In this document: piece by piece, positions 39,595 to 45,591 of the stretch
Position numbering within the stretch: the stretch's first letter is position 1
How the letters are laid out: every line of letters starts with the position of its first letter
Virus record (IMG/VR): IMGVR_UViG_3300011335_000447
Span: 1-59,386 of that record
Direction: 5' to 3' (one strand)
Source of the DNA: a virus
Lineage: Duplodnaviria > Caudoviricetes
Length of the DNA stretch: 59,386 bases
Translations under genes and position numbers: made by a program
Notes under the pieces: model-generated
What the model saw: the letters and a program-made list of their open reading frames with translations, nothing else
The model's database searches: none
What the model was told of the DNA's origin: nothing

Positions 39595-40095
39595 ATGTTA
39601 AATATTCCACCCGACATTGAGCGTGACGCTATATTTGTAAAAATATATTTGCAAACTGGAGACGGTTTGGATGCGTGTAAACGCGCTGGCTTTGTTATTA
39701 ATGGTTATGACGACCGAACTGTTGCGGAATATTTGCTTGACCGGCTGGACATTCAAGCTGCATTGCAGTTGGCCAAAGAGTCTCAAAATTACAAACCAGC
39801 CGTGGTAGAAATCACGCGAGAAAGCATCATATCTGATTTGGACACAATTCATCAATCAGCTATGTTTGATAAAGACTACACCCCGGCTATTGCTGCTAAA
39901 AAATTGCAAGCGCAACTTATGGGCGTATTGCAAGAAAATGTGCAAGTTACACACAAGATGGATGTGACGCGCATGACCGATGAGCAATTGATTAACATGA
40001 TAGCCTTAAAATCTAAACGTGAAGATTTAAGAATGATTGACATCACGCCTGTCGGGTTAGGTCAGATTAAAAGCACCGCAACAACCAGTATTTAA
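39595..40095 (+). CDS. terS: Terminase small subunit
   Basis: FVKIYL..G....AC.RAGF, YLL, ITRESIISDL; upstream of TerL. Confidence 0.7.
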   Translation: MLNIPPDIERDAIFVKIYLQTGDGLDACKRAGFVINGYDDRTVAEYLLDRLDIQAALQLAKESQNYKPAVVEITRESIISDLDTIHQSAMFDKDYTPAIAAKKLQAQLMGVLQENVQVTHKMDVTRMTDEQLINMIALKSKREDLRMIDITPVGLGQIKSTATTSI

Positions 40096-40106
40096 AGGAA
40101 GTATTT

Positions 40107-40289
40107 ATGGCAATTAAATCTAAAGTAAACTCTTCTGGTAACTATACGCAGCCTGGAATGCGTAAAAAACTTTTTAGCCAAATTAAATCAAGTGCTACGC
40201 AGGGCACTGGAGCAGGACAATGGAGCGCCAGAAAGGCTCAGCTTCTTGCTAAGCAGTACAAGGCTAAAGGCGGAGGTTTTAAAGACTAG
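40107..40289 (+). CDS. Small basic protein (N-half of DUF5872-like)
   Basis: NYTQPGMRK, GQWSARKAQLL..Y...GGG. Confidence 0.7.
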   Translation: MAIKSKVNSSGNYTQPGMRKKLFSQIKSSATQGTGAGQWSARKAQLLAKQYKAKGGGFKD

Positions 40290-40291
40290 TT

Positions 40292-40525
40292 ATGAAAAAA
40301 CCACAGACCTCCCTTAAAAATTGGACATCGCAAGAGTGGGGCACCAAATCCGGTAAGCCCTCTAGCAAAACAGGCGAACGCTATCTTCCAAAGGCTGCGA
40401 TTAAAGCATTGTCTCCGCAAGAATATGCAGCGACAACAAAAGCCAAACGCATTGGAAAATCTAAAGGTAAACAATTTGTTCCTCAACCCCCAAAGATTGC
40501 TAGAAAAACTTCTGGTTATAGATAA
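40292..40525 (+). CDS. Small basic protein (C-half of DUF5872-like)
   Basis: QTSLKNWT.Q.W.TKSGK, GERYLP, QFVPQP. Confidence 0.7.
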   Translation: MKKPQTSLKNWTSQEWGTKSGKPSSKTGERYLPKAAIKALSPQEYAATTKAKRIGKSKGKQFVPQPPKIARKTSGYR

Positions 40526-40533
40526 TAAAAATA

Positions 40534-43140
40534 ATGACTGACGAACCTTCTTTAGATGATTTTGCTTTCGAGTTATTGCGCCGTCGTCAAGCGCGAGAGA
40601 ACTTCTCGGACTTCATGAAGTATTTGCACGGCCTTCCCCCGCCGAAACACATGAAGTTTCTGTGCGATAAACTTCAAGATAAAATGAGCCGCAAGGGCGA
40701 CCGGCTTCTGGTTTGCTTTCCCCCTGGCCACGGTAAAAGCACGGTTTCTTCGCTCTATTACCCCGCGTTCTATCTATCTAAAAACCCAACGCACAACATC
40801 ATTACAGTTAGTCACACTGAATCTTTTGCTGAACAGTGGGGCCGTAAGGTTCGTAACTTGATGATGAGCGACGAATACAAGTTTTTGTTTCCAGAAATAA
40901 AAGTTGCAGAAGATAGCCGCTCGGCTGGCCGGTGGGATTTGGTCAACGGCGGCTCGTATTATGCTACGGGTGTCGGCGGCACGGTGACGGGCCGAAGGGC
41001 AGATTGCTTGGCCGGGGATACGATTTTACAAACGCCCAACGGCACTATCCGCATTGAAGATATTGACGTTTGCCCGTCTCCCTGTTATGTTCTGTCTTAT
41101 GACACAGAACGGACGACTGACAGTTCACCAACCTACCGTAGAGTTATTGCTGTTGCACGGCGCAAAACGTCTGAGCGATTTCGAGTTCACACTTCCAATG
41201 GAAGTGTTCTTGAAGCAACGGGAAACCATTTGGTCTTTAACCAAAGGGGTTTCGTCAAGGTCGAAACCTTATGTGTTGGTGACTTACTCTTGCGGAGTGT
41301 GCCAAACACCGAAGTCCACAACGATGGCAGAGGCGGCGAAAAGGACAAGGAAAGGCAGAACGGAATTTTATTGCAGTTTCCCATGTTCAACTCGGGCGAA
41401 CAACGTAGCGCGTGGAATGGTTTTTCAAAGAACGTGCAACGCTTGTGGGGAACCGTTGGGACCAAGATCAAAGACTGGGGTTTCAAAAAGAACTTGCTCG
41501 GAAAAATGTCGGTTAAAAATATTAAGAGAAGTAGGGGTAAGGCGCAGAATACCTGGAGATTGGCGCAATCGTATTTGCGAGACTTGTCAAAAGCCGTTTA
41601 CGGTATCGACAAAAGTATCAACTGGAAAATATTGTTCCAGAACTTGCTCAAGCACCGCCCACAGAGAAAGAATGTCTGGGAAAAACAATCCCGGCTATCT
41701 TCATGGTGGAGAGACAAAGGGCGCTCGCTCCATACGCTTTTCTCATGCGGAGGAGAGAACACAGAAGGGTTGGATGGATTTGCGCTGGCTTATAATACAG
41801 CGGGACGGAAAGGCTTGCGTGGTTTGCAAGAAAGCGCCCAAACGCCAACTTCACTGCCATCATATAAATTTGAATCCGAAAGACAACAGACACGAAAACT
41901 TGGTGGCTCTCTGCCGCCCGTGCCATACGAAACTTCATGCAGCGGAGCGTTCAAAACCGAAAGTGATACTGTTTCCTTGGTTGAGCGAGTATGCGAAGAA
42001 ATCTTTGTCTACGACATAGAAGTAGAGGACACCCACTGCTTCTTCGCCAACGGCATCCTAGTCCACAACTGCGTAATCTGCGACGATCTTTTGAAAGGCG
42101 TTGATGACGCAGAATCAAAACTTGTACGCGATAATATGTGGGATTGGTGGGGTTCTGATTTATCAACTCGTCTGAAGCCTAGCGGCGTGATGGTAATTAT
42201 TGGCACACGCTGGCACCTAGATGACATCATTGGCCGAGTCATGGCCGCTGAGAAGCAGAAGGGTGGCGACAAGTGGGACAAGGTTATTCTCCCGGCTCTG
42301 GCTAAAGACAAAGACCCATTAGGGCGTAAAGAAGGTGAAGCCCTCTGGCCGGAGTGGGAAAGTGAAGTTGCTCTGGCTCGGAGGCGTAACCAGCCGTCGA
42401 TGACTTCTCGGCAGTGGGAATCTCTGTATCAACAAAGCCCAGTTCTTGATTCTGGTAACGTCATCAAACGAGACTGGATCAAAATTTGGAACCAACGCGA
42501 ACCGCCTAAATGTGATTTTATTCTTCAAAGCTGGGATACGGCTATTACATCTAAAAACAAAAGTGCTTTTTCAGTTTGTTTGACGTTTGGAATTTTTACA
42601 GAAGATAAAACGGATTTGCCGTCAATTATCTTGTTGTCCCGCTGGCGGGGCCGTGTGGATTACCCTGAACTCCGCAAAATGGCTCAAAGGCTGGCTAATA
42701 ATTATTTAGACGATAATTTAGAAGTGCCTATGACCGGCAATTTTAAAAAACCTCCAGACATGATTTTGATTGAAGCCAAAGCCACGGGGGAACCTTTGAT
42801 AGCTGATTTGAACCGTGCCGGTATCTCTGCAACACGGTTCAATCCGAACAAGCATGGAGATAAGAACGCTCGACTTTTGCTGACAACGGACATTTTTGAG
42901 AATGGCCGATTTTACGTCCCTGGCCAGCCCCCAAATTACACACTTCCTAGGCGATGGGCCGAAGGCTATGTAAATTCTTTAATTTCATTCCCGGCTTCAG
43001 ATTCACGAGATGATGCCGACGCAACCAGCCAAGCTATTATTCGGATGAAAACCAGTGGCTGGATTAAGAACAGCCTTGATGCTATAGAAGAAGTTCCTTT
43101 CCGCGTAACAAAACGTGCAAACGGGGCACTTTATGGTTAA
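40534..43140 (+). CDS. terL: Terminase large subunit precursor containing an intein
   Basis: PPGHGKS Walker A, GRRAD/CVICDD Walker B split by intein, TRWH.DD, YQQ.P, SWDTA, DD.ADA nuclease. Confidence 0.93.
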   Translation: MTDEPSLDDFAFELLRRRQARENFSDFMKYLHGLPPPKHMKFLCDKLQDKMSRKGDRLLVCFPPGHGKSTVSSLYYPAFYLSKNPTHNIITVSHTESFAEQWGRKVRNLMMSDEYKFLFPEIKVAEDSRSAGRWDLVNGGSYYATGVGGTVTGRRADCLAGDTILQTPNGTIRIEDIDVCPSPCYVLSYDTERTTDSSPTYRRVIAVARRKTSERFRVHTSNGSVLEATGNHLVFNQRGFVKVETLCVGDLLLRSVPNTEVHNDGRGGEKDKERQNGILLQFPMFNSGEQRSAWNGFSKNVQRLWGTVGTKIKDWGFKKNLLGKMSVKNIKRSRGKAQNTWRLAQSYLRDLSKAVYGIDKSINWKILFQNLLKHRPQRKNVWEKQSRLSSWWRDKGRSLHTLFSCGGENTEGLDGFALAYNTAGRKGLRGLQESAQTPTSLPSYKFESERQQTRKLGGSLPPVPYETSCSGAFKTESDTVSLVERVCEEIFVYDIEVEDTHCFFANGILVHNCVICDDLLKGVDDAESKLVRDNMWDWWGSDLSTRLKPSGVMVIIGTRWHLDDIIGRVMAAEKQKGGDKWDKVILPALAKDKDPLGRKEGEALWPEWESEVALARRRNQPSMTSRQWESLYQQSPVLDSGNVIKRDWIKIWNQREPPKCDFILQSWDTAITSKNKSAFSVCLTFGIFTEDKTDLPSIILLSRWRGRVDYPELRKMAQRLANNYLDDNLEVPMTGNFKKPPDMILIEAKATGEPLIADLNRAGISATRFNPNKHGDKNARLLLTTDIFENGRFYVPGQPPNYTLPRRWAEGYVNSLISFPASDSRDDADATSQAIIRMKTSGWIKNSLDAIEEVPFRVTKRANGALYG
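41005..42069 (+). mobile_element. Intein (355 aa) in TerL
   Basis: CLAGDT block A, ATGNHLV block B, VYDIEV..THCFFANGILVHN blocks F/G, +1 Cys. Confidence 0.93.
41273..42019 (+). CDS. HNH homing endonuclease with Zn fingers, nested in the +1 frame of the intein (start uncertain; frame open from 41054)
   Basis: CxxC...CSxxC repeats, MSGKNNP, RDGKACVVC...HCHHI...DNRHENLVALCRPCH..LH. Confidence 0.88.
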   Translation: MLVTYSCGVCQTPKSTTMAEAAKRTRKGRTEFYCSFPCSTRANNVARGMVFQRTCNACGEPLGPRSKTGVSKRTCSEKCRLKILREVGVRRRIPGDWRNRICETCQKPFTVSTKVSTGKYCSRTCSSTAHRERMSGKNNPGYLHGGETKGARSIRFSHAEERTQKGWMDLRWLIIQRDGKACVVCKKAPKRQLHCHHINLNPKDNRHENLVALCRPCHTKLHAAERSKPKVILFPWLSEYAKKSLSTT

Positions 43141-43176
43141 GATACCTATTGTCTCTGTATTTTTAAGTAAATCTGT

Positions 43177-45591
43177 ATGGCCATAGATCGCGCAACCGCC
43201 TCTATACTTGGTTTAAATGATATAACTGGCGGCGATGCTAGTGGTGAAGAATTAAACATTCCTCAAATTGACCCTACGTTTGCCGATGGCGCGTCAATCA
43301 CGCCTGAAGAAGATGGTGGAGAAACTATTGATTTTCAACCACAGGCTGATGAATCCAAACCAGTGGATCACGATGACAATCTGGCCGAATACATGGAGGA
43401 TGATGACCTTCAATCTTTAGCTAACGACATCATTGATTACGTTGGTGAAGACCGAAAATCCCGCGCCGATTGGGAATCTATGTTGTCTCAAGGTTTGACC
43501 TACCTTGGCTTAAAGATTGAAGATAGGTCTATCCCCTTTAGCGGTGCGGCTGGGGTCTTTGATCCAATCTTATTAGAAGCTGTAATTCGTTGGCACGCGA
43601 CGGCTAGCGCCGAGTTAATGCCAGCGTCAGGTCCGGTTAAGACTCAAATCATTGGCCAACCAACGCCGGAAACAGAAGCCCAGGCTTCCCGCGTTAAAGA
43701 GTTTATGAATTATTACTTGATGGAAGGCGCACCTGAGTGGGTTGAACAAAACGACCAAATGTTGTTTTGGCTTCCTCTGGTTGGCTGCACGTTTAAGAAA
43801 ACTTACCAAGACCCCATTTTAAACAGAGTAGTTAGCCCCTTTATTCTACCTCAAGACTTTGTTGTTTCATTTAGCACCGATAATTTAGAGACTTGCCCCC
43901 GCGCTACGCACATCATCAACATGTCTCCCAAAGACATGAAAATGCGTCAGATCAGCGGGTTTTACCGTGATGTTGAATTAAAAGAACCTGATTATTTAGA
44001 TGAAAAAAACTCGTCGTTAAAAGACAAATCTACCTACACTCAAGGTTTAACTACACCCACAGATTCAGACGAAGCGCCTTATGACGTATATGAGTGCCAT
44101 ATTGACCTAGACTTGGTTGGTTTTGAGCATAAAGAAGCCGAAAACGACGATAGCGAAGAAGAGCCTACTGAAACTGGCTTGCCGCTGCCGTACATCGTCA
44201 CAGTCGAGACTGGTTCTAGAAAAGTTCTGTCGATCCGCCGGAACTGGAAAGAAAAAGACCAAACTTATTCTAAAATTCAATATTTTACGCACTTTAAGTT
44301 TGTCCCCGGCCTTGGGTTCTACGGTATTGGCTATGCCCATATTTTGGGTAATACGGCCAAGGGCGCTACATCTTTGCAAAGGCAAATGATAGACGCCGCC
44401 ACCCTGGAGATGTTCCCAGGCGGTCTAAAAGTGAAGGGTATGAGGGGCGACGACAGCAACGTCATGATTGGCCCCTGCGAGTTCCGCGAATTGGATACCG
44501 GAGGGATGCCCATTCAACAGGCCATTATGACGATGCCCTATAAGGGGCCGTCTCCCGTATCTATGGAGCTTTGGAAAGCCACCCGCGAGAACGGGGAGCG
44601 CCTTGGCGGTATGACTGAGGTAGCGGTTGGAGAAGGCCGTCAGGACGCCCCTGTAGGCACCACAGTAGCCCTTCTAGAAGCTTCTAACCGAGTGCAGTCT
44701 GCTACCCTCAAAGCTGCCCACCGCGCCTACAGACGCGAATTTAAGTTATTTGCGGCCCTGTTTGGCCAGTTCTTGCCGGAAGAGCCATATCCATGGCCGG
44801 TAGCCGGTGGTCCGAACGTCATTATGAGGGCTGACTTCTCGGATCAAATTGACGTTATCCCCGTCAGCGATCCCAACATTACGTCCTCTGCCCAGCGCAT
44901 GATGCGTGCCGAAGCCCTGCTTCGATTTGCAACTCAAGCCCCAAATTTGCACGATCAATATCAGGCTTACCGCCAGATGTACGTGGAAATGGGCATAGAC
45001 GAAAAGCGGATTACTGCGCTTCTGCCTCCCAAGGAAGAAGCCAAGCCGATGGACCCGTTGAGCGAAAACCAGAACTTTTTAAACGGCAAGCCCGTCAAAG
45101 TTGGCGCGTACCAAGACCATGATGCCCATATTGCATCTCACACGGTTTTGATGCAGCAAAAGCCTGAGTTGGTAACGGTCCCGGCGCATATTGCCGAGCA
45201 TGAAGCCGCCAAGATGCGGGTTCAGGTTGAACAGATTCTGGGTCAGGCGCTTCCGCCTGAAGGCCAGCAATTGCCGCCTGAAGTTGAAAACCAAATTGCC
45301 GTTTTGGTTGCCAAAGCGATGCAACAGATTTCTAAACCGCAAGGTGGAGAAGACCCCACCCCTGGTCAGATTGCTATGGAGCAGCTTAAAGTTGAAGCCG
45401 CTAAAGTTCAGGCTAAGTTGCAAGAAATTCAATCTAACACCAGCAGCAAGGCATTTACTGAAACGTTAAAGTTAAAATCTAGCCGCGAGGACCGCCTGAC
45501 TCGTGAGCGTATTGCCATGTTGAGTTACGAAAAAGACAGGCAGAAACAAATTTCCCAACCAAAGACTTTCGGGACAAGGAGCAAATTCTAA
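43177..45591 (+). CDS. Portal protein
   Basis: 804 aa after TerL; NLAE, SRADW, GPVKT, PGLGFYG.G, APVGTTVAL, PVSDPN. Confidence 0.88.
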   Translation: MAIDRATASILGLNDITGGDASGEELNIPQIDPTFADGASITPEEDGGETIDFQPQADESKPVDHDDNLAEYMEDDDLQSLANDIIDYVGEDRKSRADWESMLSQGLTYLGLKIEDRSIPFSGAAGVFDPILLEAVIRWHATASAELMPASGPVKTQIIGQPTPETEAQASRVKEFMNYYLMEGAPEWVEQNDQMLFWLPLVGCTFKKTYQDPILNRVVSPFILPQDFVVSFSTDNLETCPRATHIINMSPKDMKMRQISGFYRDVELKEPDYLDEKNSSLKDKSTYTQGLTTPTDSDEAPYDVYECHIDLDLVGFEHKEAENDDSEEEPTETGLPLPYIVTVETGSRKVLSIRRNWKEKDQTYSKIQYFTHFKFVPGLGFYGIGYAHILGNTAKGATSLQRQMIDAATLEMFPGGLKVKGMRGDDSNVMIGPCEFRELDTGGMPIQQAIMTMPYKGPSPVSMELWKATRENGERLGGMTEVAVGEGRQDAPVGTTVALLEASNRVQSATLKAAHRAYRREFKLFAALFGQFLPEEPYPWPVAGGPNVIMRADFSDQIDVIPVSDPNITSSAQRMMRAEALLRFATQAPNLHDQYQAYRQMYVEMGIDEKRITALLPPKEEAKPMDPLSENQNFLNGKPVKVGAYQDHDAHIASHTVLMQQKPELVTVPAHIAEHEAAKMRVQVEQILGQALPPEGQQLPPEVENQIAVLVAKAMQQISKPQGGEDPTPGQIAMEQLKVEAAKVQAKLQEIQSNTSSKAFTETLKLKSSREDRLTRERIAMLSYEKDRQKQISQPKTFGTRSKF

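Follow-up and report, generated by a model that had tools for sequence, protein, structure and literature searches.

In the tailed phage analysed here, the terminase gene terL appears to be interrupted by an intein whose DNA carries, one base out of the TerL frame, a second gene for an HNH endonuclease; this out-of-frame layout is real and is under selection. The DNA, referred to below as the window, is the whole of the 59,386-nucleotide (nt) IMG/VR virus record IMGVR_UViG_3300011335_000447 (Duplodnaviria; Caudoviricetes). The explanation that we favour, and that we regard as very probable when taken as a whole, is a class-1 intein in terL with a separately made, homing HNH nuclease in the +1 frame. 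The intein would interrupt terL at the Walker B strand, with the TerL frame (frame 0) read straight through, and in the frame-0 product an unstructured spacer of about 211 residues would separate an N-terminal from a C-terminal HINT half. These halves would dock and splice the insert out, leaving a terminase with a computed length of 513 amino acids (aa). The spacer DNA would double as the +1 gene for a multi-zinc-ribbon HNH endonuclease, of a kind that is free-standing in other phages, which would be made by internal initiation at one of two GTG codons (41279 or 41273) right after the N-terminal splicing domain. This nuclease would then cut intein-less terL alleles of co-infecting relatives, and repair would copy the intein, together with some flanking extein, into the cut allele, i.e. 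the element would home.

Judged by its sequence and by structure prediction, the insert is a genuine class-1 intein with a HINT fold. Relatives were collected by scanning with an alignment of the nuclease, which yielded 95 loci (L002-L096: the best 80 of 163 IMG/VR matches plus 15 species-genome loci), and the comparisons of inteins use 12 non-redundant lineages, leaving out the near-duplicates L005, L011, L016 and L001 and the truncated contigs L003 and L082. Alignment with relatives bears out what a first-pass annotation of this DNA, made from the letters alone, had proposed, namely a 355-aa intein at GRRAD/CVICDD. All the class-1 residues are there (Cys1, TGNH in block B, the C-terminal ..FFANGILVHN, and Cys+1), with C1, H75, H354 and N355 invariant, and T72 nearly so, across the 12 lineages. 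Pfam Intein_splicing matches TerL residues 191-512 (E 5.1e-11; 43.1 bits against a cut-off of 35.8), and solved mini-inteins match the profile of the frame-0 intein only at its two ends (E 1.8e-23), with no PDB match at profile positions of about 100-286. When the frame-0 intein was modelled with 11 relatives in AlphaFold2, a confident HINT fold was predicted for residues 1-102 and 314-355 (block means of the predicted local distance difference test score, pLDDT, mostly 85-92), and every block of residues 103-313 fell below 50. Frame-0 conservation across the DNA of this spacer is mostly at or below zero; the spacer holds 0 stops and no family match, in agreement with the earlier remark that the middle of the intein is open in the TerL frame and shows no endonuclease motif there. 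Given the intact catalytic residues and an essential terL, protein splicing would be expected. A group I or group II intron was considered and rejected, there being no Rfam match (E up to 1, 40500-43200) and a host frame that is open throughout. As a separate observation, 31 bases of the window (42042-42072, comprising block G and the Cys+1 codon) are matched with 1 difference by abundant unrelated contigs in sequencing runs X5 and X9, which reach a depth of up to 157 and diverge on either side; near-identical block G DNA appears to be present in other inteins of the same community.

The +1 open reading frame (ORF), on the evidence of alignments and modelling, is a genuine multi-zinc-ribbon HNH endonuclease gene, and nuclease activity of its product is predicted. 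As listed, the nested ORF occupies 41054..42019 and encodes 321 aa from the first TTG (41054), and its TAG falls within the C-terminal splicing block (..VYDIEVED..). The zinc fingers, the HNH domain and this placement of the stop codon had all been pointed out in the first-pass annotation, and the zinc fingers and the HNH domain are borne out by a match of the +1 product to PHROG 1271 'HNH endonuclease' (E 7.7e-25, residues 80-304) and by the invariant residues. The window nuclease retains all 20 invariant columns of a 15-sequence alignment; the Cys columns of the zinc ribbons are invariant or nearly so in nuclease alignments, and the HNH domain contains D251, C255/C258, H269-H270, N282, C287/C290, H291 and H295 (numbered from TTG 41054), among which H270, N282, H295 and both Cys pairs are invariant in the 15 sequences. 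A profile built from the nuclease and 14 relatives matches HNH domains in the PDB, with IscB as the best (E 1.8e-8) alongside McrA and the HNH protein of phage GVE2. Modelled from GTG 41279, the +1 product has a mean pLDDT of 76.7, with 92-95 in the first zinc ribbon and 75-94 in the HNH domain. Counted from this conserved start, the dual-coding stretch spans 41279-42019, some 740 nt, which differs little from the roughly 750 bp first estimated.

Is each of the two frames actually maintained? In the intein DNA of the 12 lineages, frame 0 contains no stop in 12/12, the +1 frame contains 1-9, mostly at the edges, and the +2 frame 14-36. When the nuclease core was recoded synonymously, using the codon usage of each locus's extein in 5000 trials, 6-15 stops were predicted in the TerL frame across the 12 lineages, against an observed 0 in every one of them, and stop-free recodings amounted to at most 0.04% in each lineage (P <=0.0004). 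For the window, recoding gives a mean of 14.4 stops and a stop-free outcome in 0/5000. The codon choice of the nuclease is thus constrained because stops in the TerL frame are forbidden. Similarity, averaged over pairs of sequences, is high for frame 0 at 41005-41300 and 41965-42069 and for the +1 frame at 41275-41965, such that conservation changes from frame 0 to +1 at about 41290 and returns to frame 0 at about 41965; the HNH catalytic domain forms the peak of +1-frame conservation. Substitutions between the members of two close pairs (L004/L005 and L015/L016), counted within the nuclease-core limits of the recoding test, are silent in +1 only in 12 instances and silent in frame 0 only in 3 (one-sided binomial about 0.02, computed by hand), with 10 others altering both frames and 2 silent in both. 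Selection therefore preserves the protein sequence of the nuclease and at the same time bars stops from the TerL frame. The first-pass annotation had named two grounds for doubt, a +1 frame free of selection and compensating indel errors that might have put an in-frame HNH out of frame. The former is contradicted by the +1 conservation, the recoding and the substitution tallies, and the latter is removed by contigs from three other runs (X5, X9 and X10), which agree with the window over 40900-42200: no letter differs, neither gaps nor indels occur, and 27-29 of 30 bins are covered.

Features of terL, its predicted intein and the nested +1-frame gene (positions in the window)
Feature	Position	Strand	Basis or remark
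terL precursor gene	40534..43140	+	868 codons plus stop; ORF list; Pfam Terminase_6N and Terminase_6C; phrog_38, E 1.1e-89
N-extein of 157 aa, last residues ..TGRRAD, directly ahead of the Walker B strand	40534..41004	+	alignments with 17 intein-bearing and 24 intein-less TerL
Intein, 355 codons in the TerL frame, between GRRAD and CVICDD	41005..42069	+	alignment with relatives; Pfam Intein_splicing
N-terminal splicing domain, intein residues 1-102	41005..41310	+	pLDDT 73-92 per 10-residue block; high frame-0 conservation at 41005-41300
Frame-0 read-through spacer, intein residues 103-313	41311..41943	+	stop-free; no confident fold; no family match
C-terminal splicing domain, intein residues 314-355	41944..42069	+	pLDDT about 90; high frame-0 conservation at 41965-42069
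+1-frame stretch of 343 codons between stops	40988..42016, TAG 42017-42019	+	ORF list
Probable HNH endonuclease gene, 246 codons if begun at the conserved GTG	41279..42019	+	second GTG at 41273
Zinc-ribbon region	41291..41650	+	Cys pairs 80/83, 107/111, 128/131, 148/152, 175/178, 194/198 (residues of the +1 ORF)
HNH catalytic domain	41804..41950	+	invariant columns; PHROG 1271; PDB profile matches

Where would translation of the nuclease begin? In the +1-frame alignment, the column 3 residues before the first CxxC Cys is GTG or ATG in 10/13 lineages, and in the window it is GTG 41279. This conserved codon is the Gly-Asp motif of the intein read one base on (GGT GAY yielding GTG), and as a start codon it would physically interlock splicing domain and nuclease gene. 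The loci with Gly-Asp use GGT in 9/9 cases, though GGT makes up only 12-26% of the glycine codons in those genes; in L007 the codon is ATG because Asp-Asp replaces Gly-Asp there. Starts at a similar place are found where the nuclease has a gene of its own, as in the split relative L014, where a GTG precedes the first Cys by 6 residues and has GGAG 11 nt upstream, and in the free-standing L026, with a start 5 residues before the first Cys. Moreover, the +1 frame is closed by stops across the N-terminal splicing domain in Brucella phage Tb (8), L013 (8) and L017 (7), and a second group of terL inteins has +1 stops as near as 8 codons upstream of CxxC (L058). The conserved start column, the starts of the split and free-standing relatives and the upstream stops together favour internal initiation over frameshifting, with GTG 41279 or 41273 as the probable initiation codon. 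Among the internal starts that the first-pass annotation had offered, GTG 41273 remains plausible beside the best-supported GTG 41279, but ATG 41198 and ATG 41324 do not fall in conserved start columns.

The distribution of the element among close relatives suggests that it is probably mobile. A scan with the C-extein gave 26 close TerL relatives, 25 of them spanning the junction, with C-extein identities of 67-99%; the window's intein occurs in 0/25, 24 having an empty site and one, L122, a different mini-intein of 143 aa. Furthermore, a 2085-nt contig of run X5 with flanks about 85% alike jumps from 40988 to 42076, joining them by 22 other letters, and since it is exactly 1065 nt shorter it represents an intein-less allele, with Ala at the extein +1 position. 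Sporadic presence and precise empty sites, two marks of a homing element, are thus both found. The N-extein (40534-41004) has its nearest relatives in L115/L116 (96-97% aa identity) and the C-extein (42070-43137) in L098/L099/L120 (99%), and nucleotide similarity profiles swap partner at the intein; terL is therefore recombinant, with a breakpoint at or near the intein. This change of partner is indirect evidence only, fitting either homing with co-conversion of the flanks or recombination at the site of the nuclease.

The empty sites and the other inteins of this phage group have features of their own. Met occupies the extein +1 position in 16 of the 24 empty alleles and Cys in 6; of the other two, one has Ala and one Gly. 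Among the Cys+1 alleles (L107, L111-L114 and L118), the first 18 C-extein bases are identical to those of the window in L112-L114 and show one difference in L111; such alleles may be scars left when an intein was lost, or else favoured targets. The mini-intein of L122 (L122:2572-3000) occupies the exact site of the window's intein and has no endonuclease. It was considered as a deletion derivative and rejected as such: only 30% identity extends over the N-terminal 102 columns, with 14/21 residues in blocks F/G, and the 30% identity points to a separate invasion. L117 (86% C-extein identity) bears a canonical, in-frame LAGLIDADG intein in the P-loop (L117:1516-4071; ..PPGHGK/ALALD .. THN/STV..), and its Walker B +1 residue is Ala. 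Two sites in the terL genes of this phage group are thus used by no fewer than three distinct inteins.

Several observations weigh against the proposal of a separately made, homing nuclease. The Pfam models HNH (17.0 bits versus 21.4) and HNH_3 (18.8 versus 24.8) both score under their gathering cut-offs, and a Foldseek comparison of the whole nuclease model with the PDB gave nothing at E <=0.001, its top rows being all HNH with McrA as the best (E 0.016). Met rather than Cys stands at the extein +1 position of most empty alleles, so that homing into these would need co-conversion of the flank, or else they would be poor targets. The nuclease has decayed in some relatives, by an internal stop in L009 and by a TGA at the first Cys in Brucella phage Tb, which shows that persistence without an active nuclease is possible. 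No convincing Shine-Dalgarno motif precedes GTG 41279 and none is consistent across lineages, the sole motif there being an AAGG 12 nt before GTG 41273, at a long spacing; the terL and portal starts of the window are likewise without one, and even a loosely defined motif is present at 28/46 ORF starts. The single RNA run compared, X20, gave zero cover on the region and is uninformative on expression. Finally, the upstream +1 frame over the N-terminal splicing domain is more open than expected (P <0.1 in 9/13 lineages, <0.05 in 3), a suggestive excess that would allow a nuclease start earlier than 41273-41279. Decay in relatives, the want of a strong ribosome-binding site and the silence of X20 would all suit a dead nuclease relic, held open only by its place within a gene that is essential and translated, and passed on by vertical descent without homing. 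We consider this improbable, as selection on frame 0 gives the +1 frame no shelter from stops, yet 343 codons are stop-free; every invariant column is kept, conservation in the core is that of the +1 frame, and absence of the intein from all the close relatives fits a recent gain. The upstream openness, which in the window begins 17 nt before the intein and is in excess in several lineages, might instead point to a ribosomal frameshift from the TerL frame that would produce an N-extein/N-intein/HNH fusion, an option that the first-pass annotation had left standing. It is less probable still, for +1 stops lie between intein start and zinc ribbon in L013, L017 and L058 (one in the last), and the nucleases of L014 and L026 start 5-6 aa before CxxC; no shift site was noticed, although no formal search for one was made.

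Two further readings would do away with homing or with the nesting itself. An idea put forward for Brucella phages (PMC4422536) would make the nested HNH protein a packaging helper of the terminase and not a homing endonuclease, in keeping with the position of the gene inside terL and with the HNH proteins assisting cos-type terminases that are cited in that source. For the window this seems very improbable: the same nuclease family is free-standing beside unrelated genes in L026 and L077 and nested in C5 methylases, and packaging does not need the nuclease, since 25/25 close relatives do without it, where a terminase-associated packaging factor would be kept with the terminase. The other reading, that an assembly or sequencing error faked the change of frame and that the nuclease is truly in frame, could appeal to the metagenomic assembly of the window and to the relative L022, which does have its nuclease in frame. 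To this we assign next to no weight, as the contigs of the three other runs contain no indels, the +1 offset recurs in 27/95 loci and in isolate Brucella phages, and the avoidance of stops in frame 0 would be pointless were that frame unread. The separately made, homing nuclease inside a class-1 intein accordingly stays our preferred explanation.

The arrangement as such has already been described in print, and the window is a further instance of a general type that is known. Brucella phage inteins that are homologous to this one and have their HNH out of frame were remarked on in 2015 (PMC4422536). Brucella phages Tb and Pr (Perisivirus) share with the window the insertion site (..RAD/C .. 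FFANGILVHN/CVI.DD) and the +1 offset, found in 41 phage-collection records of isolates of Tb, Pr and other Brucella phages, as well as homologous proteins (33% identity and E 4e-21 for the nuclease; 31% and E 7e-80 for the precursor); by site, offset and nuclease, the window therefore belongs with this Tb-type terL Walker-B intein with a nested +1 HNH. In the Tb record (NC_019446.1), gp07 is annotated 'intein present' and gp08 'putative HNH endonuclease', and the record's note says 'intron-encoded'. Unlike the window, Tb has a TGA at the first zinc-ribbon Cys, 8 stops upstream of it, 235 open codons as opposed to 343 and an N-terminally shorter nuclease, and host and phage are otherwise unrelated. 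The first-pass annotation had judged the layout rare rather than unprecedented, which the Brucella phage report supports; it had named actinobacteriophage inteins as the precedent, and such reports do exist, but the homologous Brucella phage element is the closest one.

In actinobacteriophages, inteins with the endonuclease in another frame or on the opposite strand, often in terL, have been reported in a 2025 bioRxiv preprint together with the proposal that free-standing nuclease genes invaded inteins (10.1101/2025.01.02.630785; Gosselin, Arsenault, Gogarten). They resemble the window in having an endonuclease out of frame with extein and splicing domain, and the same invasion model would apply; in the text of that report, the out-of-frame case is endonuclease VII-like, in 'frame 3', and the HNH cases are in frame. 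Insertion at the Walker B site is on record among mycobacteriophage TerL inteins (PMC5050341). ShiLan-type genes, as described in PMC11855218, hide an HNH gene in another frame of a stop-free phage DNA methylase; seven relatives of the window nuclease likewise lie at +1 in C5 methylases, but the ShiLan type has no splicing domain, whereas the window nuclease is enclosed by a complete intein. 'Fractured genes' is the term for split inteins whose halves flank a free-standing endonuclease gene (PMC2677866). L014 has this arrangement with a nuclease homologous to that of the window, in which, by contrast, the TerL frame is uninterrupted and splicing in cis would be expected. From canonical in-frame HNH inteins, of which L022 is a homologous example, the window differs in that its nuclease lies one base out and would be made separately.

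Across the 95 loci, the nuclease is nested at +1 in a longer frame in 27, at +2 in 0, in the same frame in 1 (L022) and in its own ORF only in 66, the last number taking in L014, which is the split form, and L082, a short contig that has its other frame open from end to end. The window's insertion site and offset are common to 15 of the 27 nested loci, as well as to L082 and Brucella phage Tb (L001). A second group (L023, L024, L033, L037 and L058) has +1-nested HNH inteins at another site, upstream of the P-loop (..WH..A[IL]/CLP .. VLVHN/CEHL..), in a gene that Pfam Terminase_6C identifies as terL in L023. Seven loci (L039, L075, L076, L078-L080 and L090; also L089) carry the nuclease at +1 in C5 cytosine DNA methylase genes without intein motifs. 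The offset is +1 in 27/27 nested cases and +2 in none, which is not significant because there are only about three independent host contexts. Free-standing genes (L026, L077), split halves (L014: TerL-N with intein-N, the HNH ORF, intein-C with TerL-C), +1 nesting (the window and at least 15 loci) and in-frame fusion within a terL intein (L022) are all arrangements found within one family. The nuclease-alignment query was what brought these relatives to light: scanning IMG/VR with just one nuclease protein returned 1 distant locus only, and a word-indexed search of a 5.8-billion-cluster protein collection found only 2 called nuclease relatives, both on short contigs.

The remainder of the window is that of a tailed phage. 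The IMG/VR record is classed as linear, with an estimated completeness of 79%, and it contains modules for a helicase, a primase, a Cas4-like exonuclease, a portal, a major head protein and tail proteins; 0 tRNA genes were found in it. Between terL and an ORF at 39595-40095 (166 aa), which by its position is a possible small terminase subunit without a PHROG match, lie two short ORFs rich in Lys and Gly, of 60 and 77 aa (40107-40525).

What may be the wider significance of this organization? It is conceivable, though we put it forward only tentatively, that all these observations belong to one history, in which a single nuclease family spans every stage of the union between intein and endonuclease, the start of the nuclease is built into the Gly-Asp motif of the intein, and the element is now homing into mostly Met+1 terL genes, installing Cys+1 by co-conversion, leaving Cys+1 scars in six empty alleles and setting the terL breakpoint. 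The case illustrates how one stretch of DNA can serve two selfish functions, splicing and homing, that are not united in one polypeptide. The nuclease gene then evolves under the rule that no stop may arise in the other frame, and the intein loop tolerates about 210 arbitrary residues. Nested genes of this kind are poorly annotated by gene callers, as illustrated by the 2 called relatives in the protein collection versus the 27 nested loci revealed by the DNA scan, and such inserts are best stripped before terminase-based phage phylogenies are built. Set beside relatives that are split, in frame or free-standing, the window would provide a natural series for the idea that mini-inteins came first and were then invaded by endonuclease genes.

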